From IMG/VR virus record IMGVR_UViG_3300032321_001507, positions 1-58,621 of that record: DNA of 58,621 nucleotides; one strand, written 5' to 3'. How positions within the stretch are numbered: position 1 is the first letter of the stretch; each line of letters begins with the position of its first letter. The notes beneath the pieces are model-generated. The model did no database searches. It was not told where the DNA came from and saw only the letters and a program-made list of their open reading frames with translations. Of the stretch, positions 25,487 to 55,080 are shown piece by piece. The position numbers and the translations under genes are program-made. This DNA comes from a virus. Taxonomy: Duplodnaviria; Caudoviricetes.

Positions 25487-25512
25487 GGGTGATTTGATTA
25501 GTCAAGTCACCC
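25487..25512 (+). terminator. stem-loop after lipoprotein gene
   Basis: GGGTGATTTGA-TTAG-TCAAGTCACCC. Confidence 0.55.
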
Positions 25513-25530
25513 TTATTATATTTATATAGC

Positions 25531-26292
25531 ATGATCAAATTAGTAGACATATTAAGAGAAATAGCAGAAAAACCAAAAGCAATATTCCTAGCGGGTCCCG
25601 CAGGTTCTGGCAAAAGTTTCACACTTAAAACGTTAATTCAACCCGATCAATTCAAGGTCATAAATGTAGATGACACATATGAGGAATTGTTAAAAACGGC
25701 TGGTTTAGGTATGTCTCAAAAAGATTTTGGTCCTGAAGATCTATCAAAAGCTGCTCAATTAATGGGTCAAGCTCAAAAAACTACTAAGGAAAAATATGCT
25801 CAATTGTCTCAAGAAAGACAAAATATTATAATTGATGGTACTGGTGCAGCAATTAAACCAGTATTAAAGAAAAAACAAGAATTAGAGGATTTAGGATACG
25901 AAACATTCATGATTATGATTTGGGTTTCTCCTATGACTTCATTAGAACGCAATGCATCTCGCGAACGTGCTTTATTACCACAAATTGTAACACGCACTTG
26001 GAGAGATGTAAATAAAAATATAGAAGGTTATAGAGACACATTTGGAAACAATTTTACAATAATTAACAATGATCCTGAAAACGCACAAACTGGATATAAC
26101 GCTGAACAAGTTAAAAAATTATTTTTTGATACCGCTACATTTAAAGGAAAACCAAAAACACCCGAAGAAGCGGCTAAAGCTAAAGCAGACAGAGAACAAT
26201 TAACTAACGATATAGAACAGCTAGTCCAAACAACTCCTGAGTTTGATACAATAGATCAAGCAAAATCAAAAATTAACAGCTTTACACAATGA
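25531..26292 (+). CDS. P-loop kinase (zeta-toxin/AAA_33-like) with MIKL..E leader
   Basis: GPAGSGKS Walker A, INVDD, IIIDGTG; leader MIKLVDILRE. Confidence 0.85.
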   Translation: MIKLVDILREIAEKPKAIFLAGPAGSGKSFTLKTLIQPDQFKVINVDDTYEELLKTAGLGMSQKDFGPEDLSKAAQLMGQAQKTTKEKYAQLSQERQNIIIDGTGAAIKPVLKKKQELEDLGYETFMIMIWVSPMTSLERNASRERALLPQIVTRTWRDVNKNIEGYRDTFGNNFTIINNDPENAQTGYNAEQVKKLFFDTATFKGKPKTPEEAAKAKADREQLTNDIEQLVQTTPEFDTIDQAKSKINSFTQ

Positions 26293-28121
26293 ATTTAGGC
26301 GAATATTTAGTAAATCTTTTATTAGAACAAGACCAAAAAACAATAGCATTGTTTCCTGGTGCTTTTAAACCACCACATAAAGGACATTTTTCTGTAGTTA
26401 AGGATTTAGCTGATCAAGCTGATGAAGTGGTTGTATTGATTTCACCTAAACAACGAGAAGGTATTTCTGCTGAAGAAAGTTTTGCAGCATGGGAATTATA
26501 CGATACTTTATTACCTGATAATGTTTCTTTTAGAATTGCTGTAGAAAGCCCAGTTTCTGAAACCTATGATGTTGTTAAAAACAATCCAGATACTAAATTT
26601 ATAGTTGCTTTTGGTAAAGGTGAAATAGATAGATTTAAACAAATTCAAACAACAGATAAATACCCTAATGCTACTGTGTATGATGCAGGTGAGGCTGAAC
26701 AAGGCATTAATGCTACTGGATTACGTAATGCCTTAGGTAGTAATCAAAATATAGAAGAATTTCTTCCTGATGGTATTAGTGCTATTGATTTTAAAAGTGC
26801 ATTAGGTTTAAAACAACCACTAAAAGAATCACCTCCACTTGAATTTGAACAAGATGATTATCAAGATTATATATTAGCTAATAGATCAGCTGTTGAAAAA
26901 GCAGCTGCTAATTTTAATTTACCAATTGATGATATGGAGTATGCTTTTAATGCTGGTACTCCTGTTGTGTTAGGTGATGATGTTTGGTCTAAATTACAAA
27001 ATACTAATTCATTTAATATTGAAAATTTAGAGCATGCTATAAGATATGCTCACGATAGAAAAATTAAAGTAAAACCATATATTTTAGCAATTAAAAAAGG
27101 TGAAGAATTACCATTACCATTAATGTTAAATTACGGTCAAGGTAAATATTGGTTAGTTGCTGGTGAAGTTATTTTAGCATTATATAGAGCTTTAAAAGTT
27201 ACTCCTACTGTACTACAAGCAAATTTAAATTTAATGGAAAGTTTAAATGAGAATAAACAAAAAAAAACATCTCATTTAACCGACGAAAAAAAACAACTCA
27301 TTAAAGAATTTGTTAAATATGTTGCTAAAGAATTAGAATTAAAAACATTACCACAAATTAAATTATCCACAAATAATGCCGAAGTAAAAGAACGTCGTTC
27401 ATTTGGATATTTTAGACCCGGAGATAACAATATTTGGGTTTATACTAAAAACCGTAATATGGCTGATATGTTAAGAACATTAGCTCATGAAATGGTTCAT
27501 CATAAACAAGCCGAAGACGGTAGAATTGACATGAATTCAGGTGAAACTGGATCTGAAATTGAAAACGAAGCAAACGCTAAAGCAGGAGTAATATTACGTA
27601 AGTTTGGTAAAACTCATGAAATGATTTATGAAGGTTTAAAAACCGAAGTAAAAGAAAAATACGAACTATATTGCGATATGGATGGAGTATTAGTTGATTT
27701 TGAACGTGGATATGAAGAATTAACTGGTAAAAATATTAGAGGAAATCACGTTAAAGGTGATGGAGATTTTTGGCAACCAATTACTGATGCCGGCGTTGAA
27801 TTCTGGACTAAATTAAAATGGATGTCTGATGGAAAACAATTATGGGACTATATAAAAAAACACAAACCAAATCTACTATCAGCACCTTCAAGAGAAGAAT
27901 CATCGAGAATAGGAAAACATATTTGGGTAGAAAACAATATACCAGGAGTGAATCTAATATTGAGAGCAGCAGATAAAAAACAAGAATTTGCTTCTCCAAA
28001 CGCTATATTAATTGATGATAGAGCTGATAACGTACAAAGATGGAAAGATGCTGGTGGTGTAGGAATTTTACATACATCAGCAGAAAATACAATAAACGAA
28101 CTAGAAAAATTAGGGTTATAA
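26289..28121 (+). CDS. multidomain protein: HxGH nucleotidyltransferase + ParB-like + zincin + HAD 5'-nucleotidase
   Basis: PGAFKPPHKGH; HEMVH..Q...E.EAN; YCDMDGVLVDF...ILIDD; the ParB-like call is weak. Confidence 0.8.
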   Translation: MNLGEYLVNLLLEQDQKTIALFPGAFKPPHKGHFSVVKDLADQADEVVVLISPKQREGISAEESFAAWELYDTLLPDNVSFRIAVESPVSETYDVVKNNPDTKFIVAFGKGEIDRFKQIQTTDKYPNATVYDAGEAEQGINATGLRNALGSNQNIEEFLPDGISAIDFKSALGLKQPLKESPPLEFEQDDYQDYILANRSAVEKAAANFNLPIDDMEYAFNAGTPVVLGDDVWSKLQNTNSFNIENLEHAIRYAHDRKIKVKPYILAIKKGEELPLPLMLNYGQGKYWLVAGEVILALYRALKVTPTVLQANLNLMESLNENKQKKTSHLTDEKKQLIKEFVKYVAKELELKTLPQIKLSTNNAEVKERRSFGYFRPGDNNIWVYTKNRNMADMLRTLAHEMVHHKQAEDGRIDMNSGETGSEIENEANAKAGVILRKFGKTHEMIYEGLKTEVKEKYELYCDMDGVLVDFERGYEELTGKNIRGNHVKGDGDFWQPITDAGVEFWTKLKWMSDGKQLWDYIKKHKPNLLSAPSREESSRIGKHIWVENNIPGVNLILRAADKKQEFASPNAILIDDRADNVQRWKDAGGVGILHTSAENTINELEKLGL

Positions 28122-28124
28122 TTT

Positions 28125-28709
28125 ATGGCTGAATCAAAGTTACAACGTGAATTTCGCGAACGCGACGTTCAACGCATGCGTAATCTAATTACAAAAGATT
28201 ATGGAGCTAAAACCGGAGTCCAAATAGGATATACCAAAGAAAATATTGAACGTAAAGAAGGTGATGTTTGGGAAGAAAACCAAAAAAAATGGACCATTAA
28301 AAATGGTATTAAAATGACTATATCTAAATTAGATAGTGTTAAAAAAATCATGCAATTACCATTAACATGTCCTAAATGTAATAAAGCAATGAAAGATTTT
28401 GAAGTGAATAGAAAAATGTATTCAGTTCATAAAATGTGTCTTGGTTGTGTTGTTGAATTCGAAAGTGAATTAAAACGTTTAGGTAAATATGAAGAATATG
28501 AACGTAATATTATTAAAAAAGGTATTATTGTTTATATTCAAGAATTAGAATCTCTTATGTTAGAAATAGCTATGAATGATAATAATGAATCATTTGTTAC
28601 TGAGGCCGGTGATATTGAAAAATGGTCTGGTGGTAACTTTGATAAACAGAGTATTATAGAAGAAATAGCTGAATATATAAAAACTATCAAGGAAGCCCAT
28701 CAATTGTAA
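28125..28709 (+). CDS. hypothetical protein with CxxC..CxxC zinc finger
   Basis: CPKC ... CLGC. Confidence 0.8.
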   Translation: MAESKLQREFRERDVQRMRNLITKDYGAKTGVQIGYTKENIERKEGDVWEENQKKWTIKNGIKMTISKLDSVKKIMQLPLTCPKCNKAMKDFEVNRKMYSVHKMCLGCVVEFESELKRLGKYEEYERNIIKKGIIVYIQELESLMLEIAMNDNNESFVTEAGDIEKWSGGNFDKQSIIEEIAEYIKTIKEAHQL

Positions 28710-28744
28710 TATTTATAGTTATATTTACTATTTTATTATAACCA

Positions 28745-29026
28745 ATGGATCAAAATAACATCTGGTCAGTACTAATTACAGCAATAACCGTTTTAGGCGG
28801 TACATCAGCATTTAGATACTACGAAAAACGCGCAATGCGTAAAGAAAGAGACGATGAATTTATTCGTCACGATTGTAAAGATAGAATTGCTAAATTAGAA
28901 GCTTTACTAGAATCATCATCAAGAGAAAAAGACGAATTAAGAGGTTTAGTACTTAAATTAACTGCTGAAGTAGCTGAATTACGTGTTAAAGTTGAATTCT
29001 TTGAAACTAATAGACCAAACCGATAA
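28745..29026 (+). CDS. membrane-anchored coiled-coil protein (possible holin)
   Basis: N-terminal TM then coiled coil; late motif at 28709. Confidence 0.6.
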   Translation: MDQNNIWSVLITAITVLGGTSAFRYYEKRAMRKERDDEFIRHDCKDRIAKLEALLESSSREKDELRGLVLKLTAEVAELRVKVEFFETNRPNR

Positions 29027-29538
29027 TGATTAAATTATTGGATATATTAAACGAAGCAGATCCTAAAATAGGTACAGGTAAAAAACCTAAAGGATCTGGC
29101 CGCCGTTTATATACCGATGAAAATCCTAAAGACACAGTTCGTGTCAAATTTAAAACCGCTCAAGACATAAAAGATACATTATCTAAAGAATCATTTAAGT
29201 CTAAAACACATGCTCGTAAATCACAAATTATTAATTTAATTCATCAACGTGTTAGAGCAGCATATGGTAAAGCAAAAAATCCTGAAGTAAAAGCAAGATT
29301 AAAACGTGCTTTAGATTATATTGAAAAACGTAAAGAAGCATCTAAAAAGAAAACCCAACAACTACAAAAAGAATCTTCATCATTTGCACAACAAGCGGCT
29401 ATTGCTATTGCTAAAAAGAAAAGTGGCAAATATGATAAAGAAGGAAAACGCATAAAAGAAACATCTAACCCACAATCAGGCAAAGCAGCACCATATGGTT
29501 CTGGATATGCCCCCGTAAAAATAAAAAATAATGATTAA
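29026..29538 (+). CDS. basic protein with MIKL..E leader
   Basis: MIKLLDILNE; KPKGSGRRLYTDENPKDT domain. Confidence 0.8.
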   Translation: MIKLLDILNEADPKIGTGKKPKGSGRRLYTDENPKDTVRVKFKTAQDIKDTLSKESFKSKTHARKSQIINLIHQRVRAAYGKAKNPEVKARLKRALDYIEKRKEASKKKTQQLQKESSSFAQQAAIAIAKKKSGKYDKEGKRIKETSNPQSGKAAPYGSGYAPVKIKNND

Positions 29539-29857
29539 GCTATTAAATTTAATTAACGAAGAGTTAATAACAGATAACAAATTCGAGGAATTTGCTGGTA
29601 CTAGATTAAAAGGTGCTGAAAAAATTGCTGACACTACTCAAGAGGCCGGTGGTTTATCTTTATTAACTTATAAACATTACAAAGTTAAGTTACCATACTA
29701 TAAAAAAGCAGCAGCTGGTAAACTAGATAAAGAAGCAGCTAAAAAGGAATTTGAAGAAACTTTAAAAAGTATATCATTAGATATGACTCAATCACAATTT
29801 CAAACAGAAGTTGGACGTTTAGAAGTATTAGGTGAACTATTAATACAAAATAAATAA
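29531..29857 (+). CDS. hypothetical protein with MIKL..E leader
   Basis: MIKLLNLINE. Confidence 0.8.
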   Translation: MIKLLNLINEELITDNKFEEFAGTRLKGAEKIADTTQEAGGLSLLTYKHYKVKLPYYKKAAAGKLDKEAAKKEFEETLKSISLDMTQSQFQTEVGRLEVLGELLIQNK

Positions 29858-29858
29858 T

Positions 29859-30482
29859 ATGCTAAACGAGAACATTTGTTACTTTAAATGTCTCATAAAA
29901 GAATCTTACTTTACTAAAAATCCTAAAGATTCTAATAAGTACCATAATGCTTACGCTTTTGGTATTCAATCAATAATGGGTAAAATTCTTACCTTTCATA
30001 TCATGACTGATTATGGAATGTTAAGATCTAGAGTACCTTTATCTGAAATTTATTTACAAGAACCTAAAAAAGATCTTCCTTTTTATTATAAACAGTTATG
30101 GGACTGCTTTGATAATAACGTAACTATTATAACTTATGAGTACTTAAAAGAAAAAAAATGCAAAGTTATATTAAGAGATAAGACTTACGTTTGGGCTACA
30201 TATTTATTTACAGTAGACTGGCAAAATAATCCATATTCAGACGAACCAACAGACTATAAATGCGGTCATATTTTAGTAGCTGATGATGGATATTTATTGT
30301 GTATGCCTAATAATAGAATATTTTGGAAGGATTCTAATTGGATAACTAAAGATTTCCCTATAGACCCTAAAAGTATTAAAGTAGATACAGAATTATTAGC
30401 TGTAGAATCAGTAGCAGATAGATGGGTATCAGAAGATACAGATTCATTCTACTATGATATTAAAGAAATAAAACATGATTAA
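29859..30482 (+). CDS. conserved phage hypothetical protein
   Basis: QLWDCF..YLFTVDW..KCGH..PNNRI motifs. Confidence 0.8.
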   Translation: MLNENICYFKCLIKESYFTKNPKDSNKYHNAYAFGIQSIMGKILTFHIMTDYGMLRSRVPLSEIYLQEPKKDLPFYYKQLWDCFDNNVTIITYEYLKEKKCKVILRDKTYVWATYLFTVDWQNNPYSDEPTDYKCGHILVADDGYLLCMPNNRIFWKDSNWITKDFPIDPKSIKVDTELLAVESVADRWVSEDTDSFYYDIKEIKHD

Positions 30483-31386
30483 ATTATTAAACATATTAAA
30501 CGAATTATTATTCGAAAAGAAACTTTGCCCTAAAGGCAAAGCTTACTATAATCGCCGTAAAGCTGCTGGTGAAAAACCATCCGCTTATCTTTCTGGTCGT
30601 GCTGTTAAAGTATGTAAAGGTTTAATGGAAGAGGATGATTTAGATATGCACGAATCATTACGTGATTGGTTTGAAAAAGAAGATTGGGTTCGTATAGATA
30701 CAGCAGGCAATATTACAGGCCCTTGTGGTACAATGAAAAAAGGTAATGCAACAACCCGTTGTCTACCTCGTGCTAAAGCAAATAGTTTAACTAAAGCAGA
30801 ACGCGCTGCTACTGCTCGCAAAAAAGTAGCTGGTTCTAAAAAAGGAGACCAATTTGTACCTAATACTAAAAAAGCAAAAGTTAGTCTTAATGAAGTAGAA
30901 GATCCAATTATCCAATGTGAAAAATGTGGTCATAGCTGGAAAGTAAGTCAATCAGATCCTTCTGATTTATATATATGTCATAACTGTAACTTTGATAATA
31001 GTTACAAATACAATAGTGAAATAGATGAATACGATGTTGAAAATGAACAAGATATAAAAGAATTCATTGAATTCATGCGTGAATATCAACAACAACTATC
31101 CGAAGCAGATTGTGATTGTTTACTTGAAGCCGAATATCGTGGCCGTAAAGTACAATTAGGCAAAATCATGCAAGGTGATATTAAGAAATTTAAAGTTTTT
31201 GTTAAAAATAATAAGGGTAAAGTTGTAAAAGTAAACTTTGGATGGGGTGGTAAATCAGCTAAAGGCAAAAGAATGGTTATTAAAGCCAAAAATCCAAAAA
31301 GACGAGCAGCTTATAGAGCAAGACACAATTGTGATAATCCAGGACCACGTTGGAAAGCAAATTACTGGTCTTGTAAAAAATGGTAA
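30475..31386 (+). CDS. modular basic/Cys-rich protein with MIKL..E leader
   Basis: MIKLLNILNE; modules PSAY.SG, LRDWF.EDW..PCG..CLP, CxxC..CxxC, RARHNC..YWSCKKW. Confidence 0.8.
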   Translation: MIKLLNILNELLFEKKLCPKGKAYYNRRKAAGEKPSAYLSGRAVKVCKGLMEEDDLDMHESLRDWFEKEDWVRIDTAGNITGPCGTMKKGNATTRCLPRAKANSLTKAERAATARKKVAGSKKGDQFVPNTKKAKVSLNEVEDPIIQCEKCGHSWKVSQSDPSDLYICHNCNFDNSYKYNSEIDEYDVENEQDIKEFIEFMREYQQQLSEADCDCLLEAEYRGRKVQLGKIMQGDIKKFKVFVKNNKGKVVKVNFGWGGKSAKGKRMVIKAKNPKRRAAYRARHNCDNPGPRWKANYWSCKKW

Positions 31387-31387
31387 T

Positions 31388-31684
31388 ATGATTAAGTTAA
31401 TAGATATACTAAACGAAGACGTTAATAGTGCTGAATTTAATCGCTTACATTGGCGTGATCATTTTAAAGAAATTATTAAATGTGCTGAAATAGCTTTATC
31501 AAGTACTGATGCTGAAATAATTAATACTGAAGTAGATAGTATAATCAATCATGCTCAAGCAGCAGCTGATAAACAAGAAGCTACTTACGCTAAAGCCAAT
31601 ACTCCTGAAACTATAAATTCAAATATAGCTAATTCATATACAGGAACAGATGACGATATAACTGGTCCTGGAATGGATAGCTAA
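31388..31684 (+). CDS. hypothetical protein with MIKL..E leader
   Basis: true start is ATG 31388 (MIKLIDILNE), right after the upstream stop. Confidence 0.8.
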   Translation: MIKLIDILNEDVNSAEFNRLHWRDHFKEIIKCAEIALSSTDAEIINTEVDSIINHAQAAADKQEATYAKANTPETINSNIANSYTGTDDDITGPGMDS

Positions 31685-31735
31685 GTTACTTTTTCTATAT
31701 TTATACCTATATAATATATAAATTAATTTTCAATT

Positions 31736-32698
31736 ATGCCATTAGTAAAACGTTTAATTAAAGGGTCTACTTTGACTTACCAAGAAATGGATGATAACTT
31801 ATCTTATCTTGATAATAAAGTAAGTGGATCTAGTGGATATATAACAAGATTTAGTGGTTCTACCGCTTTAACTAGCAGTTTATTAAACCAAATTGCTTCT
31901 ACTGTTTTTGTATATGGTTCGTTTAACGTATCTCAATCACTAACTGTTAATAATAGTAGTGTTGTAACTTTAGCATCACCTTCATATTACATAGCAACAG
32001 GATCCGTTACTGCTTCTGTTAGTGTAAATAATTATGATGTATTTAATATTAAAAGTGGTAGTGTATATTATTCATTAATTAATGATAATACTAATAATAC
32101 TTCTTTTGGTAGAAGTACTATCCCATTAACATCTACAGGTAATTTTAATACTTCAATAGGAGGATATGTATTAGGATCATTAACATCTGGTACAAAAAAC
32201 ACTGGTGTTGGATATTCCTCATTACTTAGTATAACTCAAGGTAATAATAACGTTGCTGTTGGAAATAACACCTTAATTTATATTGTTACAGAATCATTTA
32301 ATACAGCAATAGGTGCTAATGCTGGAGAAAATCTTTCTGGTCAACGAAATACATTAGTAGGTAACCAAACACTAACCAATAGTAATACTGGTAGCAATAA
32401 TACAGTTATAGGTAATACTGCTGGTTTTAATAACTACGGAAATAATAACGTATTTTTAGGACATCAGGCTGGATATAATGAAGCTGGTTCTAATAAATTA
32501 TATATTGCTAATAATAGCGGTTCATCTCCATTAATCAAAGGTGACTTTAGTAGCGGGTCAGTAACTATTAATAATGTATTAACTATGGTTACTCAAAGTG
32601 CTTTACCTGCTGCAGCAAATTATCCTTATTCATTCGCAGTATCATCAAGTGGTGTACCATTCTTTTCAAATGGTACTACCTGGACAGCATTATTCTAA
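31736..32698 (+). CDS. fibre/adhesin-like virion protein (beta-roll repeats)
   Basis: KGSTLTYQEMDDNL N-terminus; repeated NT.IG...L....G..N; late motif at 31697. Confidence 0.75.
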   Translation: MPLVKRLIKGSTLTYQEMDDNLSYLDNKVSGSSGYITRFSGSTALTSSLLNQIASTVFVYGSFNVSQSLTVNNSSVVTLASPSYYIATGSVTASVSVNNYDVFNIKSGSVYYSLINDNTNNTSFGRSTIPLTSTGNFNTSIGGYVLGSLTSGTKNTGVGYSSLLSITQGNNNVAVGNNTLIYIVTESFNTAIGANAGENLSGQRNTLVGNQTLTNSNTGSNNTVIGNTAGFNNYGNNNVFLGHQAGYNEAGSNKLYIANNSGSSPLIKGDFSSGSVTINNVLTMVTQSALPAAANYPYSFAVSSSGVPFFSNGTTWTALF

Positions 32699-32725
32699 AT
32701 ATTTATATAAAATACACATAACAAA

Positions 32726-32866
32726 ATGGCAAAACCTAAAACCCAAGTTGTAAAAGCTTTCCAAAAGCGTCACAAAGTACGTAGAAAAGGCGTACACGCT
32801 AAAACAAAAGTTTCAAATTCAAAAAATGCAACTAATTACGTTAAATTAAGTAGAGGACAAGGATGA
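32726..32866 (+). CDS. 46-aa highly basic peptide ending RGQG (not in ORF track)
   Basis: MAKPKTQVVKAFQKRHKVRRKGVHAKTKVSNSKNATNYVKLSRGQG*; late motif at 32699; ATGA overlap with the next gene. Confidence 0.75.
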   Translation: MAKPKTQVVKAFQKRHKVRRKGVHAKTKVSNSKNATNYVKLSRGQG

Positions 32867-33387
32867 TAAAATTACAAGATATATTAAACGAAAATTTAGA
32901 TATTGATAAATTATTCAATAATCTACTTACCAAAGTAAAACAATCAGGACAATCAACTGCTGGTTTAGAAAATGAATTTAATAAAGCAGATAATCCAGTT
33001 GCTAAACTTAAGGTACTTAACAAATATAAAAATATTGTTAAAGAATCTGTTAATGAATCAGTTTATTTTGATCCTAAAAGCAATAAAGAACTTGATCTAC
33101 AATGGAATGGTAGACAATGGGAAATTGATATTAGAAAAAAAGGTGACATGAGCTTTAGTAAGCCTGTTACTATTAAACGCGATACACTAGAACAAATAAA
33201 AGACTGGTGTAGACAATATAATTTACCTACAGACTGGATTACAGAAAAAGAAATAAATGAAGTAGAATCAGCATTTAAAATTGATCCAGCTTTAGCAGGT
33301 AAAATATACGATATATTAGTGAGAGAAGGTGTTAAATTAGATATGACTAAAGCATACTTTTTTTCGTTTTTGAATAATAAATTATAA
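32863..33387 (+). CDS. hypothetical protein with MIKL..E leader
   Basis: MIKLQDILNE; internal VKE/VNE/ITE/INE sites. Confidence 0.8.
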   Translation: MIKLQDILNENLDIDKLFNNLLTKVKQSGQSTAGLENEFNKADNPVAKLKVLNKYKNIVKESVNESVYFDPKSNKELDLQWNGRQWEIDIRKKGDMSFSKPVTIKRDTLEQIKDWCRQYNLPTDWITEKEINEVESAFKIDPALAGKIYDILVREGVKLDMTKAYFFSFLNNKL

Positions 33388-33397
33388 TATATGGACG

Positions 33398-33622
33398 GTG
33401 ATAGTCGAAAACAGAATGCAAACCTGGAGAAAAACACTAAAAGAAAACTTGGCTACCATCTGCCTAATGTTGGGAATGTTTTTCAATCCGTTTGGGTTCG
33501 ATGCCGTTCAATATTCTCTGATACTATGGACAGGGAGTTTGTGGAAAGCGAATTTCGTTTTGTACTGTATTGCGGGGCTATTCTTTGGGTTATATATCTC
33601 ATTGCGAAATAAAGAAAATTAA
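33398..33622 (+). CDS. small membrane protein
   Basis: two hydrophobic helices around FFNPFGFD; start may be ATG 33416. Confidence 0.65.
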   Translation: MIVENRMQTWRKTLKENLATICLMLGMFFNPFGFDAVQYSLILWTGSLWKANFVLYCIAGLFFGLYISLRNKEN

Positions 33623-33654
33623 ATATTTATATATAAACACATTAATTAACAATC

Positions 33655-34116
33655 ATGAAAGTAAACGAAATCAAAAATATCATCAATCAAGTAATTGCTG
33701 AAGCTAAAGAAAAAAAAGAAGCTTTACCAAAAAGTGGTGGTAAATTAGTACATTTAAAGAAAGAATTAGCTAGCTTAAAAAGCATGCAAGAATCTGTAAG
33801 TCAACTTACTATGAACGAAGCTAACGCTCAACCATTAGTAGCTGAGTACGCTCACATGCAAAAATATGTGAACGAATTAGAAAAAATTAAAATGGCTTCT
33901 GCTAAATTATCTGAAATGTTAGGTAATCAAATTGGTGAAGTTGAGAATAAAATTTCAACTGAAACTCAGAAAATCAAAGAAATGATGGGTTTAGTAGAAC
34001 CAGTTGAAGAAAAGAAAGCTAAAAAAGTTGAAAAAACTGAAAAAGCTGAACCTAAAAAAGCTGAACCTAAAAAAGCTGAAAAAAAAGAAGAACCTAAAGC
34101 TAAAGAAGAAAAATAA
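33655..34116 (+). CDS. coiled-coil protein with KAEPK C-terminal repeats
   Basis: IKNIINQVIAE N-motif; late motif at 33623. Confidence 0.8.
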   Translation: MKVNEIKNIINQVIAEAKEKKEALPKSGGKLVHLKKELASLKSMQESVSQLTMNEANAQPLVAEYAHMQKYVNELEKIKMASAKLSEMLGNQIGEVENKISTETQKIKEMMGLVEPVEEKKAKKVEKTEKAEPKKAEPKKAEKKEEPKAKEEK

Positions 34117-34118
34117 TT

Positions 34119-34688
34119 ATGAAACAGTCGATTAACGAAATCAAAAGAATGCAATTATTAGCTGGTATCCTTAATGAATCACAGTTGAATGAAGAACAAG
34201 AAAATAAAGAATTATCTCCTGAACAAGCTGTTCAAAAAGCTATGCCTTTAGTATCTAAATTAGAAAATAATTCTGAATTAGATAGTATTGCTTCTGATAT
34301 TGCTAAAGACCCAAAAGCTACTAAACAGTTAATGGATTTGTTAAATAAATACGGTGTTAATCCTGCTAATGTTAGTGAAAATATAGATAATAGTGCATTT
34401 GAAAAAATAGCTCTAGCCATGGCTAAAAAAGCTGACTCATCTGATAATTTATCTGAAGAAGCAGGCTTTGATTATAGTGGAGCTTTTTGGCTAGGATTTG
34501 TAGGCGGAGGTGCATTAGGTCGTTATATCGCTAGTATTGGAGATGTGATAACTCCGCATATGCAATTACATGGATACTCTCCATCCCATTTTGGAGCCAT
34601 GGTAGGTGGCTCATTATTAGGAGTAGCACTTTTAACTATTGGTAAAATGGTTTATGACAAATATAAAAAACCATTTGGTGAAAATTAA
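34119..34688 (+). CDS. protein with RMQLLAGI motif and C-terminal glycine-rich TM helices
   Basis: INEIKRMQLLAGILNE; two hydrophobic Gly-rich segments. Confidence 0.8.
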   Translation: MKQSINEIKRMQLLAGILNESQLNEEQENKELSPEQAVQKAMPLVSKLENNSELDSIASDIAKDPKATKQLMDLLNKYGVNPANVSENIDNSAFEKIALAMAKKADSSDNLSEEAGFDYSGAFWLGFVGGGALGRYIASIGDVITPHMQLHGYSPSHFGAMVGGSLLGVALLTIGKMVYDKYKKPFGEN

Positions 34689-34696
34689 AATTAATT

Positions 34697-35068
34697 ATGA
34701 ATCCATTAGCAGGACAATTCGTATCAACATTGTTTGCCTCTAGAACACAGGCACATGTTTTTCATTTACAAACCCCATCATTTGCTGCACACTCTGCATT
34801 AAATACATACTACGATGAAATTGTAGGTTTAACCGATAGTTTTGTTGAGGGATATCAAGGTAAATATGGTATTATTATGGGATATGCAAATGTTGCTTTA
34901 CAAGAATATGAAAGCTGTGAGGCAATTATTAATTATTTCACTATATTAGATATCTATATTACTAAAACCCGTGAAATGGTTTGCCCAGATTCATATTTAC
35001 AAAATATTATTGATGAAATTGTAGCGTTGATTAATTCAACTATCTACAAATTAAAATACCTTAAATAA
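34697..35068 (+). CDS. ferritin/Dps-like protein (DUF5856-like)
   Basis: H..HLQT.SFAAH.AL..YYD.I..L.D..VE.YQG.YG ... LQNI.DEI...Y.L. Confidence 0.8.
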   Translation: MNPLAGQFVSTLFASRTQAHVFHLQTPSFAAHSALNTYYDEIVGLTDSFVEGYQGKYGIIMGYANVALQEYESCEAIINYFTILDIYITKTREMVCPDSYLQNIIDEIVALINSTIYKLKYLK

Positions 35069-35727
35069 TGATTAAATTAATCGACCTTATCTCTGAACGC
35101 AATTTATCTGCTAAAGAAGAAAAAATTGTTAAAGCATTAAAGAAAACAGGAAAATTCAAAAAGAATGATCCTGATATGTATGCTATTGCTGCATCTAAAG
35201 CAGAAGCATTAGATCCAGTAGGTAAGGAAGATAAGGATATTGATAATAATGGTAAAGTAGATAATACAGATAAATATTTACTTAAACGTCGTAAAGCAAT
35301 AGCTGCTAACATTAAAGAAGATAACGGAATGGAATTTCCAAAAGAAATATCTTCACTCTATGGTAATCAATTTGTATTCATCCATGATGATAGTAAACCT
35401 GGTTTTTATAATATTAAAGATCTTGAAACAGGTAAAATGATAGGAAGAGTAGGATTTCCTACCCCAGAAAAAGCTAAATCTTTTGCTATGGATTTAGTAA
35501 AACCAAAAGGTGGAACAATATCAACTCAACTTGAAAGTCAAGATCACGAAGTAGCAATGGCTATTTCTAGTTTAGAAGCTATCGCTGAAGCAATTATAGA
35601 GTTAAGACAAAAATTAGGTAATACAGAACGCAACATACCTGGATGGATTCAGGACCACATTACAAACGCTGAAAATTATATTGAGCAAGCAGCTCAAGGT
35701 TTTCATGAACTAAAAAACGATGAGTAA
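35068..35727 (+). CDS. modular protein with MIKL..E leader
   Basis: MIKLIDLISE; EF-hand-like DKDIDNNGKVDNTD; DHEVAMA..IPGWIQ module. Confidence 0.8.
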   Translation: MIKLIDLISERNLSAKEEKIVKALKKTGKFKKNDPDMYAIAASKAEALDPVGKEDKDIDNNGKVDNTDKYLLKRRKAIAANIKEDNGMEFPKEISSLYGNQFVFIHDDSKPGFYNIKDLETGKMIGRVGFPTPEKAKSFAMDLVKPKGGTISTQLESQDHEVAMAISSLEAIAEAIIELRQKLGNTERNIPGWIQDHITNAENYIEQAAQGFHELKNDE

Positions 35728-36223
35728 CTTATTACTAGAAAAATATATTTCCGTTGCGGTACAGAAAGCTTTAAGAGAGCAAGAAGTGGCACAACAAAAA
35801 TCAGAAAAATCGATGTACCTAGTATATCGATTTCCTGGTTTAAAGAAACAATTAGAGGAGCTTATGTCTCCTGCTTTTGGACGTTATATTGCTAATATTG
35901 ATATTGTAGCACCTAAACCAACAACATTTAAAATTGATTTAATAAATTCCCAAATATTCTATATATATTACCTTGGTAAAGGAGAATATATGTTTAAAAT
36001 ATCTGGTAAAAAATATTATGCTGAAAGTTTAGGTGATTTAGAAAGAGCATCAGATGCTGTAACAGCATTATTAGAATTAAATTATGCTCCAACCGAAGTT
36101 AAGGAAGAAGCAGTCCCCACTGATAAAGGTACTGAATTAGGTGATGAATTAGCTGCTGCTGATAGTGCAACACCGGAAGCATCAGCTGAAGAAGAGGTAC
36201 CTGAAGAAGAAGTAAACGTATAA
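35720..36223 (+). CDS. hypothetical protein
   Basis: 167 aa, acidic tail. Confidence 0.75.
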   Translation: MSNLLLEKYISVAVQKALREQEVAQQKSEKSMYLVYRFPGLKKQLEELMSPAFGRYIANIDIVAPKPTTFKIDLINSQIFYIYYLGKGEYMFKISGKKYYAESLGDLERASDAVTALLELNYAPTEVKEEAVPTDKGTELGDELAAADSATPEASAEEEVPEEEVNV

Positions 36224-37752
36224 TGGTTAATATAGATAGCATATTATTAGAATGGTCTTACCGTTGTAACGATGGCGTTGTTGATTTAAACGACCCTGAA
36301 AAAAAAGCTATATTAGAACAAGTTTTAAAAGAAATAGGTATTGATTTATCTGAAGCTGAAAATGAAGATTTAATTTCATTAATTAGTAATTCTGATTTAT
36401 TTTCTGATTTTGGAACTTTAGAAGCATCTGGAAATAATACAATAAAACTAATATTTTCAAACATCCCTAATAGAGGTTCCCAATCAGATTCATTACGTAA
36501 CGATGCTTATGATGCATTAAAACAATTAGTAGATCAAAATAAAGATTTATCTGATTTTAGAAAATTATCTCCAGGTACGGGTTCTAGTTTAGGAAGTGCT
36601 GTTGTTAATTATAAAGGTAAAGATTACAAATTAATTGTTAAAGGTGTTTCCGATGAATCTTCTAGTGATACAGATGTTAAAGAGGCATTAGTTTCATTAT
36701 TTTATGTTTCTGATATTACTACCCCTTTTAATAGTGAAAATTACGAATCAAGAATAAATCAATTAATTAATGCTGCACAAGAAGGTATTCCTGGAGAAAG
36801 TAGTAATGCATCACAAAAAGTAGTTAGTTTCCTTACAGCAATATCAACTGATAATAAATCATCAAATATAACTTTCATAAACCAACCTTTATCATCAGCA
36901 TTAGCCATAAAATTAGCATATCCTGATCAAAAACTAATAAGAACAGGTTTATTTGATGTTATAAGAAATAAAGCAACATTATTAACTGGACTACCAGCAG
37001 ATAAATGGTGTCCTGGTGATGTATATGTTCAATTAGGACCTGTAGATGGTATTAGTAAAATTGATAATATTGAACTTCTTAATGATTTATTCAATAATGA
37101 ATGGGGTGAAACCTTAAAACCATTAGTTGCTGTATCATTAAAACAAGCAGAAGCACAAGGTGGAAAAGCTAAAGCATTACTTAACAAATATACTAAAGCT
37201 AAAGAAGATTATAATTTAACTGCTGATGAAATTGATTTTGATGAAGAACAATTTAAAAATGGTATTAAAGACTTAAGAAATAAAATCCAATCTAAAATTA
37301 GTGGTAATCAAAATATTGAATATGTTACGGATTCTGATAATTTAAAAAGTGATATTAGATTTTTAAGAGGCAAATATGCTGCTTTAAAATCAGTAGAATT
37401 TTTATTTAGACAATTTAATGATAGTGAAGTTGATGATGCTATAGTAGCATTAGCAGGATTTGCATTATCATTATCCGGTGTAAATCCAACGTTCTTTAAA
37501 GTAACAGGACAAAAAAGTGGTGAACCTGGTAAAGTAGATACCTTCCCAAGAGGCCAAAATATTATATTATATAATATAGATGGTGATTATGAACCTATTA
37601 AAGTAGAAGATAGTTCTACTTTTGGTGGTTTAAAAATTAATTTTAAAATTGAAAAGGGAGGAAATCCATATTTAGTATCTATTAATGCTAGAAATAATGG
37701 TAATACTCAAGGAACTTTAGAAATACAAAAAATTCAACCACTGTCAAAATAA
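36223..37752 (+). CDS. putative PD-(D/E)XK-type nuclease with leader MVNIDSILLE
   Basis: E...DKWCPGDVY...VSLKQ resembles the DKWNPADIW..SLK nuclease-like family. Confidence 0.55.
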   Translation: MVNIDSILLEWSYRCNDGVVDLNDPEKKAILEQVLKEIGIDLSEAENEDLISLISNSDLFSDFGTLEASGNNTIKLIFSNIPNRGSQSDSLRNDAYDALKQLVDQNKDLSDFRKLSPGTGSSLGSAVVNYKGKDYKLIVKGVSDESSSDTDVKEALVSLFYVSDITTPFNSENYESRINQLINAAQEGIPGESSNASQKVVSFLTAISTDNKSSNITFINQPLSSALAIKLAYPDQKLIRTGLFDVIRNKATLLTGLPADKWCPGDVYVQLGPVDGISKIDNIELLNDLFNNEWGETLKPLVAVSLKQAEAQGGKAKALLNKYTKAKEDYNLTADEIDFDEEQFKNGIKDLRNKIQSKISGNQNIEYVTDSDNLKSDIRFLRGKYAALKSVEFLFRQFNDSEVDDAIVALAGFALSLSGVNPTFFKVTGQKSGEPGKVDTFPRGQNIILYNIDGDYEPIKVEDSSTFGGLKINFKIEKGGNPYLVSINARNNGNTQGTLEIQKIQPLSK

Positions 37753-37771
37753 TTTTATTATATTTATATAC

Positions 37772-41006: not shown

Positions 41007-41921
41007 ATGAAAAAACTAGAAAAAATAATTAAAGAAGCTATAGCTGAGGTAATAAATGAAGATGCTGCTAAAATTAAAAATTTAAGACTTACAGCAACAA
41101 AATTCCGCCAACAAGCTATTGATGCAGAACAAGCAGCATCTGCAGAAGAAGAAAAAGATCTTCAACAAAATAAAACTGCTGTAGCTGAAATTAATGTTAA
41201 CGAAATGGCTCGTATTCCTGTACAATACAAAATTGCTGATTTATCTAAATTAGATGATTTAAGTGATAAAGTAAAAAATTCTAAAGGTGTACAAGGCATT
41301 ATTTCTTACTTACAAGATAAAGGACAAGCACCCGTTGCTGCAATCGCAAAAGATCAATTTAATCGCCCTCAACAAGCAATTAATCCAGTAGTATTAGCTT
41401 TAACTCAAGCAGGTGTATTAGATACAGTTGGTGGTTCAGGTGTTGCTGCTTCTCGTGTTGGTAAAGGTGGTGCAATTGCTCCTCCAACAACAAAACAAAT
41501 AATTGATCCAGAAGATTTCTTGATTGGTGGTGGTGAAAAATTTGATAAAGCACCTAATGAACCAAGTGAAGAAGAAATTGCAGCATCATTTGCAGCAGCA
41601 AGAGCTATTGGTGATGAAGATGAAGATATAATCAAAACTCTTCCAAAAGATGCTCCAAAATCAAAAATGACTATTTCTGATCAGGACTATGATAAATTAA
41701 TGAAATTCTTAAATGCTAAAGAACGCTTAAGAAACATTGATAGTGCTCTTAGACAAAATAAAAAAATCTCTAGAGGTGGTGATGATATGATCTCTAAAGA
41801 TTCAAACGAGGAAGAAAGACTAAAAGCTAAAAAAGCGGAATTAGAAAAACGCATTGATGACTTAGTTGCTTCTAGTGAATACTTACAACGCCGCAAAGCC
41901 CCAGAAGATAAAAATAAATAA
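41007..41921 (+). CDS. hypothetical late protein
   Basis: MKKLEKIIKEAIAEVINE N-motif; late motif at 40975. Confidence 0.8.
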   Translation: MKKLEKIIKEAIAEVINEDAAKIKNLRLTATKFRQQAIDAEQAASAEEEKDLQQNKTAVAEINVNEMARIPVQYKIADLSKLDDLSDKVKNSKGVQGIISYLQDKGQAPVAAIAKDQFNRPQQAINPVVLALTQAGVLDTVGGSGVAASRVGKGGAIAPPTTKQIIDPEDFLIGGGEKFDKAPNEPSEEEIAASFAAARAIGDEDEDIIKTLPKDAPKSKMTISDQDYDKLMKFLNAKERLRNIDSALRQNKKISRGGDDMISKDSNEEERLKAKKAELEKRIDDLVASSEYLQRRKAPEDKNK

Positions 41922-44333: not shown

Positions 44334-46208
44334 ATGGCCGAAAGTAACAATTTAGGACTATTTGGAAATCTAAGACGTTTATTTAGCACAGATGTTATCA
44401 TCAGAAATGTTGGTGGTAAACAGCTAAAAACTATTGATACTGATAGAATTCAAGCATATGGTAATGTTAAAACCAATGCTTTAATAGATAGATTTACTAA
44501 ACTTCATAGATACGGAGCTAATATGCCGTATAATCCAACTATGAACTACCAAACACTTCGTATTCAGTTATACACTGATTATGAAGCAATGGATACAGAA
44601 TCAATTATTGCTTCTGCTCTTGATATTATTTCTGATGAAGCAACATTAAAAAATGAAGCAGGTGAAGTATTACAAATCAGATCCTCAGACGAACGTATTC
44701 AAAGAATATTATACAACTTATTTTACGATGTATTAAATATTGAATTTAACCTTTGGTTATGGATTCGTAATATGAGTAAATATGGTGACTTTTATTTACA
44801 CTTAGAAGTTGCTGAAAACTTTGGTATCTATAACGTAACACCATTATCAGTTTATGATATGGTACGTGAAGAAGGTATGGATCCACAAAATCCATCTTAC
44901 GTGTGTTTTAGAATTGATCCAATGGTTATTGCTGCTGGTGGTATGAATTCACGTGTTAAAGATAGAGATGGTAAAATTAAGTTTGAAAACTATGAAATTG
45001 CCCATTTCCGTTTATTAACAGATGCTAACTACCTACCATACGGAAGATCATACATTGAACCCGCACGTAAAACGTATAAACAATATATTCTAATGAAGGA
45101 TGCAATGCTATTGCACCGCATCACTAGAGCGCCGGAAAAACGGGTATTCTACGTTGACATTGGTAACTTACCAAATGCTGAGGTTGATGGATACATGGAG
45201 AAGTTAAAACAAAAAATGAAAAAAACTCCATATATTGATAACCAAACAGGAGAATACAACTTAAAATATAATGAACAAAATATACTTGAGGATTTTTATA
45301 TTCCTCAACGAGGTGGAAATTCAAATACTAGAATTGATACTATTAAAGGTTTAGAATATAATGCAATTGATGACGTTATGTTCTTAAGAGACGAAATGTT
45401 AGCTGCTCTTAAGGTACCTAAAGCATTCTTTGGATTTGAAAAAGACTTAACTGGTAAAGCTACATTAGCTGCTGAAGATATTCGTTTTGCTCGCACAGTT
45501 GAACGTATTCAACGTATTGTATTATCTGAGTTATATAAAATGGCATTAGTACATTTATATGCTCAAGGATTTGATGGTGAAGCTTTAGCAAATTTTGAAT
45601 TATCATTAACTACTCCTTCAATTGTTTACGAACAAGAAAAAGTAGCGCTATGGAAAGAAAAAATACAATTAGCTAAAGATATTCAAGATAGTAACTTAAT
45701 GCCATCTGATTGGATCTATGATAAAGTATTCCAATTCTCAGAAGATCAGTACGATGAGTATCGTGATTTAATTGCTGAGGATATGAAACGTAAATTCCGT
45801 TTTTCTCAAATTGAAAATGAGGGTAACGATCCAGCACAATCAGGTAAATCTTATGGTACACCACACGATTTAGCTACTTTATATGGTAAAGGAAGAAATG
45901 GCGTAGGTGATACAGGAGCTGTTCCTCCAGGATATGATGAAACTAGACCAGTTGGACGTCCTAAAGAAAAAGCATCTATTATTGGTACACAAAAAGATCC
46001 ATTAGGTAAAGATAGATTAGGAAGTAAAGAAAATTCAACATTATATACAGCTAATATACCTAATGATGAAGGTGGAACACCAAAAGGTGGTTCTCCATTA
46101 TCACTAGTTGAATATAAGAGAAATAAAGATTTACTAAAATCCATAGTATTTGGAAATAAATCTGATGAAAATAGTATGTTAGATGAAGAAAATATTAAGG
46201 ATATATAA
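44334..46208 (+). CDS. gp20: portal protein (gp20-like)
   Basis: LMKDAMLLHRITRAPEKRVFYVDIGNLP; EDFYIP.RGG; ALKVPK; EDIRFAR. Confidence 0.95.
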   Translation: MAESNNLGLFGNLRRLFSTDVIIRNVGGKQLKTIDTDRIQAYGNVKTNALIDRFTKLHRYGANMPYNPTMNYQTLRIQLYTDYEAMDTESIIASALDIISDEATLKNEAGEVLQIRSSDERIQRILYNLFYDVLNIEFNLWLWIRNMSKYGDFYLHLEVAENFGIYNVTPLSVYDMVREEGMDPQNPSYVCFRIDPMVIAAGGMNSRVKDRDGKIKFENYEIAHFRLLTDANYLPYGRSYIEPARKTYKQYILMKDAMLLHRITRAPEKRVFYVDIGNLPNAEVDGYMEKLKQKMKKTPYIDNQTGEYNLKYNEQNILEDFYIPQRGGNSNTRIDTIKGLEYNAIDDVMFLRDEMLAALKVPKAFFGFEKDLTGKATLAAEDIRFARTVERIQRIVLSELYKMALVHLYAQGFDGEALANFELSLTTPSIVYEQEKVALWKEKIQLAKDIQDSNLMPSDWIYDKVFQFSEDQYDEYRDLIAEDMKRKFRFSQIENEGNDPAQSGKSYGTPHDLATLYGKGRNGVGDTGAVPPGYDETRPVGRPKEKASIIGTQKDPLGKDRLGSKENSTLYTANIPNDEGGTPKGGSPLSLVEYKRNKDLLKSIVFGNKSDENSMLDEENIKDI

Positions 46209-49232: not shown

Positions 49233-49844
49233 ATGAATAAGCAATTATTAGTTGATCACACCCCCTTTCATATAGCTAAACTAACACTATCTGAAGCTAA
49301 AATAGCAGGTGATGGTCGTATGCGTATTAGAGGTAAATTGCAAGAAGCCGAAGTAAAAAACGGTAATGGTCGTGTTTATCCAAAAAATATTTTAGAACAA
49401 CAAATTGAAAAATATATTCAAGGTCCTGTAAAAAGTAATACAGCAATGGGTGAATTAGATCATCCTGAATCTTCAATTGTAAATTTAAATAACGTTTCTC
49501 ATAACATTACTAAAGTATGGTGGGACGGAAATAATGTAATGGGTGAATTAATATTACTAAACACCCCAGCAGGTAAAATTGCTCAAGAATTAATTTCAGC
49601 AGGTATTCCATTAGGTATTTCATCTCGTGGTATGGGTTCAGTACGCCAAATCGGTGAAACTGTTGAAGTACAAGACGATTTTGAATTATTATGTTGGGAT
49701 TTAGTTTCAGTACCATCAACACCTAATGCATATATGACATTATCTGAATCAAAACAATTTCAATCAATACAAGATTATAGTAAAGTTAATTCTTTACTAA
49801 CCGAAATTATATGTAACAATACAGGCGTTTGCCCGCTTTGCTAA
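49233..49844 (+). CDS. gp21: prohead core protease (gp21-like)
   Basis: NGNGRVYP, GELDHP, VSHNI, GISSRGMGS, DLVSVPSTPNA; start ATG 49233. Confidence 0.95.
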   Translation: MNKQLLVDHTPFHIAKLTLSEAKIAGDGRMRIRGKLQEAEVKNGNGRVYPKNILEQQIEKYIQGPVKSNTAMGELDHPESSIVNLNNVSHNITKVWWDGNNVMGELILLNTPAGKIAQELISAGIPLGISSRGMGSVRQIGETVEVQDDFELLCWDLVSVPSTPNAYMTLSESKQFQSIQDYSKVNSLLTEIICNNTGVCPLC

Positions 49845-50053: not shown

Positions 50054-51085
50054 ATGACAAACAAAGATTTATTCAAGGAAGCCATTGCTGACGCTAAACA
50101 AGTACGTGAAGCGGCTCTAGCTAATGCAAAAGTTGCTTTAGAAGAAGCACTTACTCCAAGACTTCAATCTATGCTATCTACTAAACTTCAAGAAATGGAT
50201 GATGAAGGTGAAATCGAATCTGATATCGCATCTGCAATGGAAGAAGAAAATGTAGGTGGATACACAGATGAAGAAGAAATGGAAGAAGGATTTAAAACTG
50301 CTCAAGGTCAATGGAACGCCGAAGACGATTCAGATACCTTAGAAGAAGATTTTGATTTATCTGAAATTTTAGCTGAGCTAGAAGCTGAAGATAAAGAAGA
50401 AATGAAAGAAGCTGAAGACGGTGAAGAAAAAACCGACGAAGAAGAAGAAGCAGGTGAAGAAGAAGAAGCTGGTGAAGAAGCTGAAGAAGAAGTAGAAGTT
50501 AAAGATTTAACTGTTGATGAATTAAAAGATATTATTAAAGATATCGTTAATCAAGAATTAGAATCTGAAGAATACGAATCTGAAGAAGAAGAAGCCGGTG
50601 AAGAAGAAATGATTGATTTAGGTGGTGAAGAAGAAATGATGGAAGAAATTAATTTAGAAGAATTATTAGCTGAATTAGATGCTTTAGAAGAAACTGAACA
50701 AGTTGAAGAAGCAAAAAATGCTAAAGAAGATGATGAATTAAAAGAAGCTATTGACACTATCAATACTTTACGTGTTGAATTACAAGAAGTTAATTTATTA
50801 AATGCTAAATTACTTTATGTAAATAAAATCTTCAAAGCTAAAAACTTAACTGAATCACAAAAAGTAAAAGTTATTGCTTCGTTCGACAAAGCAACAACTG
50901 CAAAAGAAGCTAAAATTATATTTGAATCTTTAGAGTCTACATTAACTGCAACATCAGGTAATAAAACTCAAATTAAAGAATCATTAGGATTCGCTTCAAA
51001 AGCTGCTGGTGTAGCACCTAAGAAACAAATCGTTGAAGTAAACGATAACATTTCTAGAATGCAAATGCTAGCAGGTATTAAATAA
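50054..51085 (+). CDS. prohead scaffolding protein (gp22 analogue)
   Basis: very acidic coiled coil between protease and MCP; many LxE sites; C-terminal RMQMLAGIK. Confidence 0.85.
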   Translation: MTNKDLFKEAIADAKQVREAALANAKVALEEALTPRLQSMLSTKLQEMDDEGEIESDIASAMEEENVGGYTDEEEMEEGFKTAQGQWNAEDDSDTLEEDFDLSEILAELEAEDKEEMKEAEDGEEKTDEEEEAGEEEEAGEEAEEEVEVKDLTVDELKDIIKDIVNQELESEEYESEEEEAGEEEMIDLGGEEEMMEEINLEELLAELDALEETEQVEEAKNAKEDDELKEAIDTINTLRVELQEVNLLNAKLLYVNKIFKAKNLTESQKVKVIASFDKATTAKEAKIIFESLESTLTATSGNKTQIKESLGFASKAAGVAPKKQIVEVNDNISRMQMLAGIK

Positions 51086-54748: not shown

Positions 54749-55080
54749 TGATAAAATTATCTAACATATTATTAGAAGGAATTAATGTTTATTCAATTGA
54801 AGCATTGATAAAAACAACTGCTGGTGAAAATAAAGTAGAAATTTATAATCAAGTAAGAGCACTTTCTGGTATTATTGTTGTTACTGTAGAACACAGTGAT
54901 TTTTTAGATGATAAAGCTACAAATAATTATGAATATTCATTATTAAAAATGAAATACATAGTAAAATCAACTCCCGAAGAAGATATAAACAAAATCAAAA
55001 TAAATGCTCAAAAAATAGTACCAGGATTAGTTCAATTCATTCCTAGAATGAAAACACTAGAAAAGAAAGGAGCATACTAA
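54748..55080 (+). CDS. hypothetical protein with MIKL..E leader
   Basis: MIKLSNILLE; inserted between neck genes. Confidence 0.8.
   Translation: MIKLSNILLEGINVYSIEALIKTTAGENKVEIYNQVRALSGIIVVTVEHSDFLDDKATNNYEYSLLKMKYIVKSTPEEDINKIKINAQKIVPGLVQFIPRMKTLEKKGAY

Follow-up and report, generated by a model that had tools for sequence, protein, structure and literature searches.

The stretch analysed here, referred to as the window, is the entire IMG/VR record IMGVR_UViG_3300032321_001507, which is 58,621 bases long with a G+C content of ~30% and an estimated completeness of 36%. Judged from its sequence, its source is an uncultured aquatic T4-like myovirus. Among cultured phages, it is closest to Flavobacterium phage vB_FspM_immuto (160 kb; hereafter immuto), with which it shares 57.6% identity in the capsid protein and a similar gene order; megablast of positions 25000-38000 against cultured phages gave no match. 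The subject of this work is a ten-residue N-terminal leader, MIKLx[D/N][I/L][I/L]xE, which a six-frame regular-expression scan of the window finds at the start of eight open reading frames (ORFs), all on the + strand:

25531..26292, + strand: MIKLVDILRE and a P-loop kinase-like protein, 253 amino acids (aa); Zeta_toxin 9.3e-12, AAA_33 1.4e-9
29026..29538, + strand: MIKLLDILNE and a very basic protein, 170 aa; isoelectric point (pI) of the mature part 10.3, 25% Lys+Arg
29531..29857, + strand: MIKLLNLINE and a small all-helical protein, 108 aa; from the leader scan and an AlphaFold2 (AF2) model
30475..31386, + strand: MIKLLNILNE and a basic protein, 303 aa; pI 9.4
31388..31684, + strand: MIKLIDILNE and an acidic protein, 98 aa; ATG directly after the stop of the preceding ORF
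32863..33387, + strand: MIKLQDILNE and a 174-aa protein without known family; from the leader scan, no family match
35068..35727, + strand: MIKLIDLISE and a 219-aa protein; from the leader scan
54748..55080, + strand: MIKLSNILLE and an alpha/beta protein, 110 aa; encoded within the head-tail joining section of the structural module

An earlier note on this DNA had described these ORFs as sharing a leader while being otherwise unrelated, and both parts of that description hold. Each of the eight leader ATGs is either the first of its frame or directly abuts the upstream stop, and the degenerate DNA pattern of the leader matches the window eight times in the forward direction, never in reverse and never in a control in which it is read backwards. 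The bases 5' of the eight ATGs are dissimilar. Once the first ten residues are removed, the proteins fall into eight separate BLASTP clusters; thus, at E<=1e-5, the cargos are otherwise unrelated. They comprise the Zeta_toxin/AAA_33-type P-loop kinase, the two basic proteins (pI 10.3 and 9.4) and five proteins without known family, and the mature pI is >=8.5 in four of the eight and <=6.9 in four.

Another start, MVNIDSILLE, had been proposed as a variant of the leader:

36223..37752, + strand: conserved 509-aa protein starting MVNIDSILLE, not a leader; from homologue alignment

The proposal failed on alignment. In this position homologues have FDKFFQQYSYKF or DKIVIEWAFRC, the Glu is not fixed, and because the stretch belongs to a conserved domain we do not regard it as a leader. 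A tblastn search of cultured phages with the 36223 protein gave no match.

Cargo and codons vary while the leader stays

When IMG/VR was scanned for exact matches to the leader DNA pattern, at least 120 stretches were hit. The leader set was assembled from these pattern-matched loci, 12 further loci obtained via the 36223 protein, and the window, and a looser regular expression was applied to it. Counts from this set refer to the matches listed. They include 229 leaders, most of them <=14 codons from an upstream stop, and 227 of the 229 head ORFs of >=40 aa, which group into 85 cargo clusters (55 singletons).

The 229 leaders are encoded by 201 distinct 30-mers, with six codons in use for Leu4, three for Ile2, two for Lys3 and two for Glu10, so that the synonymous variation first pointed out in the window extends to the whole set. 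Position 8 is Leu or Ile in 226 of the 229, Glu10 being fixed by the regular expression; pattern and regular expression together fixed residue classes at positions 1-4, 7, 8 and 10.

This codon freedom bears on the possibility that the conserved 30 bases are a DNA-level boundary for recombination or cassette exchange, with the peptide as a by-product. Mobile regulatory cassettes occur in T4-type phages, and the cargo here is highly variable and clustered. However, synonymous change is free, as the number of distinct 30-mers attests, and the sequence upstream of the leader ATGs is not conserved. A cassette boundary is already disfavoured by these data, and we consider it highly improbable.

An I/L-x-E junction precedes the mature domains

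The most telling result, because it is independent of the leader regular expression, comes from a junction test in which searches were made with the mature parts of the cargo proteins and then anchored on conserved mature motifs. In the family of the 29026 protein, the mature start ADPKxGTGKKPKG is preceded by Glu at P1 and Ile or Leu at P3 in eight of eight distinct junctions. The window has MIKLLDILNE at this place, whereas the upstream peptides of the other seven junctions are different and 38 to 220 residues long, with ends such as ...PGGLEE, ...NDPDITE, ...EQNIVE and ...PGGISE. In the family of the 25531 kinase, Leu or Ile at P3 and Glu at P1 stand before a G/S-V/L-x-D block in all 11 distinct junctions. 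The leaders of this family include MIKLFDILNE, MNLLELLKKNRLTE, MKTFAELQE (Methylophilales phage Melnitz) and MIPFILKE (Pelagibacter phage HTVC008M). A search for MIKL-type leaders in HTVC008M and Melnitz gave no match in either phage, their kinase homologues having other short leaders that end in Glu.

Leaders are exchanged in further families. The cargo family ..RDRCLRIADRKF starts with MIKLVDILLE, MEKLEKIIKEILTE or MEDKLKKLIKEVLAE, or follows a fused upstream domain ending in NIQE. Homologues of the 30475 protein have MTKLTDILNE, MEDKLKKLIKE-IITE or a fused upstream domain with the end VIEE, and the immuto homologue of the 29531 protein begins with MRLLELLRE. Leader-like sequences of immuto proteins are MIKLIDLLTE (gp231), MISIYNILKE (gp093), MRLLELLRE (gp082) and ...IIKEILSE (gp084). 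The leader itself is found on the 32863 homologue in the related locus L019 (MIKLIDLINE) and on the 35068 homologues in L019, L041 and L071. The same junction type also occurs within fusion proteins, far from start codons. An I/L-x-E that is kept before a domain, whatever lies upstream, is what a gp21-type processing site would look like.

Since the strongest data concern the I/L-x-E junction, that is, processing, they could also be read more narrowly: the leader would be a propeptide removed by the protease, which might for example hold the cargo in an inactive or tethered state, with the address elsewhere or packaging passive. Cargo with long unrelated upstream peptides fits this reading in that the junction is kept without MIKL immediately before it, and the role of the propeptides flanking T4 Alt is given as open in the part of PMC5694885 that deals with Alt. 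The narrower reading leaves aside, however, that leader positions 2-7 hardly vary over the 85 clusters (in a set selected by a pattern restricting positions 1-4 and 6-8), and that the likeness of the leader to two islands of the scaffold protein, described below, extends beyond P3-P1. In T4 IPIII, moreover, the first ten residues suffice for packaging, with residues 4 and 7 assigned to targeting and residues 8 and 10 to processing (PMC9026906, section 2.6). Processing as the sole function of the leader therefore appears rather unlikely to us.

The leader is confined to viruses with an S77 protease

The gp21-like protease that had been placed at 49233 is confirmed by its family match and by a match to the T4 gp21 structure 5jbl (4.3e-19). 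It belongs to a downstream module of large terminase, portal, S77 protease, scaffold and gp23-type capsid protein:

44334..46208, + strand: gp20-type portal protein; PF07230 1.1e-68
49233..49844, + strand: S77 (T4 gp21-type) prohead protease; PF03420 1.9e-35, phrog_207 1.6e-59
50054..51085, + strand: acidic scaffold, gp22-like, 343 residues; assigned by position, composition and conserved sites only
51123..52754, + strand: gp23-type major capsid protein with propeptide; PF07068 1.2e-77, domain from residue 77

Sites of the form [I/L][I/L]xE are LITE59 in the propeptide of the capsid protein, EILAE, ELLAE and KIIFE in the scaffold, and SLLTE in the tail of the protease. The junction of QLITE59 with the following G, ahead of the start of the Pfam domain at residue 77, is a candidate cleavage site of the capsid protein, and SLLTE, near the C-terminus of the protease, is a putative self-cleavage site. 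A PhoH-like gene (52858-53550; PF02562, 2.4e-62) lies between the capsid and head-tail adaptor genes, and the same arrangement is found in immuto.

The 50 longer contigs of 132 related loci were given to an S77 search, of which 49 were searched. Of these 49 records, 30 encode a recognizable S77 protease, among them all six that are >=90% complete; the 19 records without a match have estimated completeness of 2-45%. The search gave no match in 14 control genomes. In the 11 longest records searched there are 1 to 10 leaders per record, as compared with eight in the window, and none in backwards controls. In 596 Gb of cellular genomes, only 14 stretches match the leader pattern, five of them inside long ORFs and three without a leader-type match in any reading frame, and no S77 match was found in the 14 cellular genomes that hold these stretches. 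Because of the co-occurrence with S77 and the near-absence from cellular genomes, we describe the tag as a feature of S77-bearing viruses.

Two small contigs, L158 and L154, are binned in a Rickettsiaceae metagenome-assembled genome (MAG) and a Proteobacteria MAG and carry two or three MIKL genes each. Their cargo resembles that of the phage group of the window, and their sequences suggest that they are probably phage fragments that were mis-binned.

The distribution also bears on functions of the leader that have nothing to do with the capsid, such as serving as a common helix that docks on another phage complex, marking proteins for degradation or regulation, or providing a translation-start context of a kind favoured by an A+T-rich genome. 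Some of the cargo looks metabolic, the single MIKL gene of immuto (gp231) lies among metabolic genes, and the leader codons are rich in A+T. A translation context, however, would fix neither Glu at codon 10 nor a Leu written with six codons at position 4, and functions of this kind sit poorly with the occurrence of the leader in S77-bearing viruses and with the same junction type in fusion proteins, away from any start codon. We judge a role outside the capsid to be improbable.

A promoter-like motif heads the gene strings

The word TATTTATA, which is the reverse complement of the TATAAATA word of T4, occurs at 23 sites on the + strand of the window, 20 of which are intergenic and lie 3-52 nt ahead of an ATG. 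Sites are found at 9094, 11759, 17808, 21818, 25519, 28710, 31698, 32700, 33624 and 37761, and further along at 40976, 42685, 44303, 46217, 47919, 52815, 53553, 54733 and 57106. TAA or TTA often stands 5' of the word, and structural genes and their neighbours lie downstream; the genes headed by it include baseplate, terminase, portal and prohead starts. In a 41.6-kb structural stretch of immuto (locus L021), all ten + strand sites lie 4-68 nt before annotated starts. Judging from these positions, TATTTATA probably serves this clade as its late promoter. The T4 orientation, TATAAATA, was rejected as a promoter: it has 35 sites on both strands against 24.4 expected, and four of 100 shuffles reach 35.

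25519..25526, + strand: TATTTATA promoter-like motif, intergenic, directly before leader gene 25531

The motif stands directly upstream of two of the eight leader genes, 25531 and 54748 (7 nt before the latter), and the other six lie further along gene strings headed by it; strings are also headed by the copies at 28710, 32700, 33624 and 54733. The earlier statement that leader genes mostly follow late-promoter motifs is thus right for two genes directly and for the remaining six only in the sense that they lie inside motif-headed strings. The large-terminase frame (42639-44300) opens with GTG at 42639, and the copy of TATTTATA at 42685 sits 21 nt ahead of an ATG at 42714, for which reason the latter is the likelier start of the terminase.

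The leader resembles conserved islands of the scaffold

The 18,642 residues of the window proteome contain 14 matches to L.[DEN][IL][IL].E, as compared with 0.59 in residue shuffles (maximum 4). The 14 matches are the eight leaders, one match that overlaps the 30475 leader, two invariant islands of the scaffold and three other sites, namely the N-terminus of the 26289 protein and internal positions in the 5390 and 34697 ORFs. In an alignment of 25 scaffold homologues, a variable acidic middle contrasts with the invariant islands FDLSxILAEL, LKDIIKDI..QE, EINLEELLAELDA and a C-terminal SRMQxLAGI. In its core, L-x-(D/E)-(I/L)-L-x-E, the leader copies two of these islands, from which we infer that the leader may imitate a scaffold element and that the cargo probably enters as a scaffold look-alike. 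A complex prediction that paired the scaffold alignment with the 29531 family scored 0.00; it was run without controls and counts neither for nor against binding.

Further N-terminal sites suggest that MIKL is one of several leader types. Within the first 25 residues of the 80 + strand genes of the window, [ILVMF][ILVM]xE is found 26 times against 8.5 expected from the interior rate (P ~1e-6). Two candidate classes are represented by the following ORFs:

41007..41921, + strand: candidate second leader class, MKKLEKIIKEAIAE; from an N-terminal motif scan
34119..34688, + strand: candidate third leader class, MKQSINEIKRMQLLAGILNE ahead of S, in which the scaffold C-terminal motif is followed by I-L-x-E

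The candidate class MK..E..K(I/L)IKE.(I/V)xE starts ORFs at 9105, 33655, 38076, 41007 and 47110, and in the RDRCLRIA cargo family a class of the MK..E..KIIKE type stands in place of MIKL. N-terminal starts of the R-M-Q-x-L-A-G-I type are found in 19 ORFs from 16 loci. In the window, R-(M/I/W)-Q-x-(L/I)-A-G-I occurs at the C-terminus of the scaffold (51053-51085), at the C-terminus of the 37772 ORF (37980-38020) and at the N-terminus of the 34119 ORF (34140-34178). By its sequence and placement, this element may be a shell-binding scaffold end that is reused as a tag. A wider proposal would be that aquatic T4-like phages use at least three interchangeable leader classes ending in I/L-x-E, together with internal fusion junctions, and that dozens of unrelated proteins thereby enter the prohead as scaffold mimics. 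We put this forward tentatively, as a possibility that we do not yet favour.

Structure models and cargo proteins

In AF2 models of two leader-bearing families, the leader is predicted to be disordered and outside the fold. For the 54748 family (10 sequences), the mean predicted local distance difference test score (pLDDT) is 82.2, with residues 1-9 below 50 and the first strand at residues 13-24. For the 29531 family (16 sequences), in which the mean pLDDT is 88.8, scores fall below 50 at residues 1-5 and 7-14 and exceed 95 elsewhere. A Foldseek search of the PDB with the 54748 model returned generic ferredoxin/ACT-like folds, with a best E of 2.2e-3 and none at <=0.001, and no function was assigned.

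Pfam was scanned with a sample of 40 proteins: the eight leader proteins of the window, 30 from other loci and two window proteins without the leader. Most match no family. One of the 40, at L048:4092-5090 with the leader MIKLLQILKE, is an ART-PolyVal ADP-ribosyltransferase (1.3e-27), and one cargo protein outside the window has a phosphoribosyltransferase domain. The ART-PolyVal domain is of the effector kind characteristic of polyvalent proteins that are packaged in heads. In T4, the ADP-ribosyltransferase Alt is packaged in the head and has a short N-terminal propeptide that is cut at ITE-6 (PMC5694885, in its account of Alt), which makes the ART-PolyVal protein a close functional parallel.

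The ORF that follows the kinase gene (26289-28121) encodes a 610-aa fusion protein whose N-terminus is cytidylyltransferase/NMNAT-like, whose middle resembles a metallopeptidase and whose C-terminus is a 5'-3' deoxyribonucleotidase. The nucleotidase, fused here, is a separate gene in immuto and HTVC008M. The start of the fusion protein, MNLGEYLVNLLLE, contains an L-L-x-E site.

Interpretation and comparison with known systems

We think it likely that MIKLx(D/N)(I/L)(I/L)xE is a propeptide that resembles the T4 capsid-targeting sequence (CTS), directs proteins to the head and is removed by the protease. In the mechanism that the sequences suggest, the leader would bring a cargo protein into the assembling prohead core, which the cargo would enter as a scaffold look-alike by virtue of the leader core; the active S77 (gp21-type) protease inside the prohead would then cut after Glu10, with Ile or Leu at P3; and the mature cargo would remain in the head with the DNA and enter the host at infection.

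The T4 CTS has the sequence MKTYQEFIAE (as quoted in PMC8442874), and the T-even internal proteins are described as diverse and as having only the CTS in common (PMC3012670 and PMC9026906, in their sections on these proteins). The two systems are alike in that ~10 N-terminal residues ending in I/L-x-E are common to otherwise unrelated proteins, and in the principle of a constant tag with variable cargo. The leader and the CTS are of equal length and have the same residue classes at positions 4, 6, 7, 8 and 10, with hydrophobic residues at 4, 7 and 8 and Glu at 10; since the search pattern and regular expression had fixed the classes at these last four positions, the agreement describes the motif and does not test it independently. 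Processing sites given for T4 include ITE-6 and LTE-619 in Alt and LIE-9 in gp21 (passages in PMC9026906 and PMC5694885). Like T4, this phage encodes gp20, gp21 (S77), scaffold and gp23, and one related cargo protein is an ADP-ribosyltransferase, as Alt is. The MKTFAELQE leader of the Melnitz kinase is closer to the T4 CTS than the window leader is. By analogy, we file the latter as working like the CTS and not as a sequence member of it.

The differences are mainly of scale and form. More genes are tagged here than in T4 (eight in 36% of a genome, and up to ten per record among the 11 longest), several leader classes appear interchangeable, only half of the cargo in the window is basic, the host range differs, with a relative of Bacteroidota type, and the system is known here from sequence. 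Unlike the T-even loci, it reaches across at least 120 contigs of uncultured phages, takes in 85 cargo clusters and includes polyprotein-like internal junctions. The assertion in the earlier note that the system is much larger than that of T4 is therefore moderately true, given eight tagged genes in the window and 1 to 10 in longer records. Its central idea, a portable gp21-site tag on varied cargo, agrees with the S77 co-occurrence, the junctions, the leader swaps, the disordered leader and the ADP-ribosyltransferase cargo, whereas the observation that diverse proteins share a CTS had already been made for T-even phages. The principle is thus known from T4; novelty lies in the scale, in the leader 'dialects' and in the likeness to the scaffold.

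Several points weigh against the interpretation as a head-targeting propeptide: (i) The conservation of leader positions is partly circular, since the loci were fetched by the leader pattern, although the codon freedom is not. (ii) Only M1 and E10 are identical between the window leader and MKTYQEFIAE. (iii) Only four of the eight window cargos are basic, the rest being acidic or neutral, unlike the T4 internal proteins. (iv) The P-loop kinase, and a kinase fused to NT5C in locus L118, resemble cytoplasmic enzymes of nucleotide metabolism, which would be odd in a capsid. (v) Almost all of the window from 9 kb on lies behind TATTTATA, so that late co-regulation does not discriminate; it supports co-expression with the head genes and does not single out the leader genes. 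(vi) In immuto, gp231 lies outside the late module.

Two other systems invite comparison. In the giant phages phiKZ and SPN3US, ejection proteins carry propeptides, and proteins inside the head are substrates of a related prohead protease, which cleaves them after Glu; the propeptides are much longer, the motifs are A/S-x-E, and the account of them in PMC5694885 does not describe a short shared leader. The second system is that of the encapsulins.

In encapsulins, cargo-loading peptides serve as short portable tags that bring varied cargo into an HK97-fold shell. They mostly lie at the C-terminus, attach directly to the shell and remain uncleaved, and we claim no sequence relation between them and the leader.

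The leader strings MIKLKDILNE, MIKLIDILNE, MIKLTDILNE and MIKLLDILNE were not found in the openly searchable literature, and text searches, which did not extend to subscription papers and supplements, found no paper describing this leader system. A search on capsid targeting in cyanophages returned only the review by Black; searches on prohead protease, propeptides and virion proteomes gave nothing on aquatic T4-like phages, supplementary tables being outside their scope; and six of the eight papers that mention immuto are, judging by title and abstract, on other topics.

Significance

Proteins that are packed in the head and injected together with the DNA act before phage gene expression, and those of T4 include an inhibitor of a restriction enzyme and an ADP-ribosyltransferase. 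Were such proteins recognizable in uncultured phages by a sequence tag, this would yield a list of candidate first-strike proteins, which here amounts to the 85 cargo clusters, mostly of unknown function. The leader could also serve as a portable signal for loading proteins into phage heads. For T4, the part of PMC9026906 on the CTS describes its binding only as an affinity for the prohead core, and the likeness between leader and scaffold islands offers a testable idea of what a CTS binds. If the proposal of a multi-class address system is true, the injected proteome of uncultured phages would be readable from sequence, and it would constitute a pool of candidate anti-defence and host-takeover proteins.

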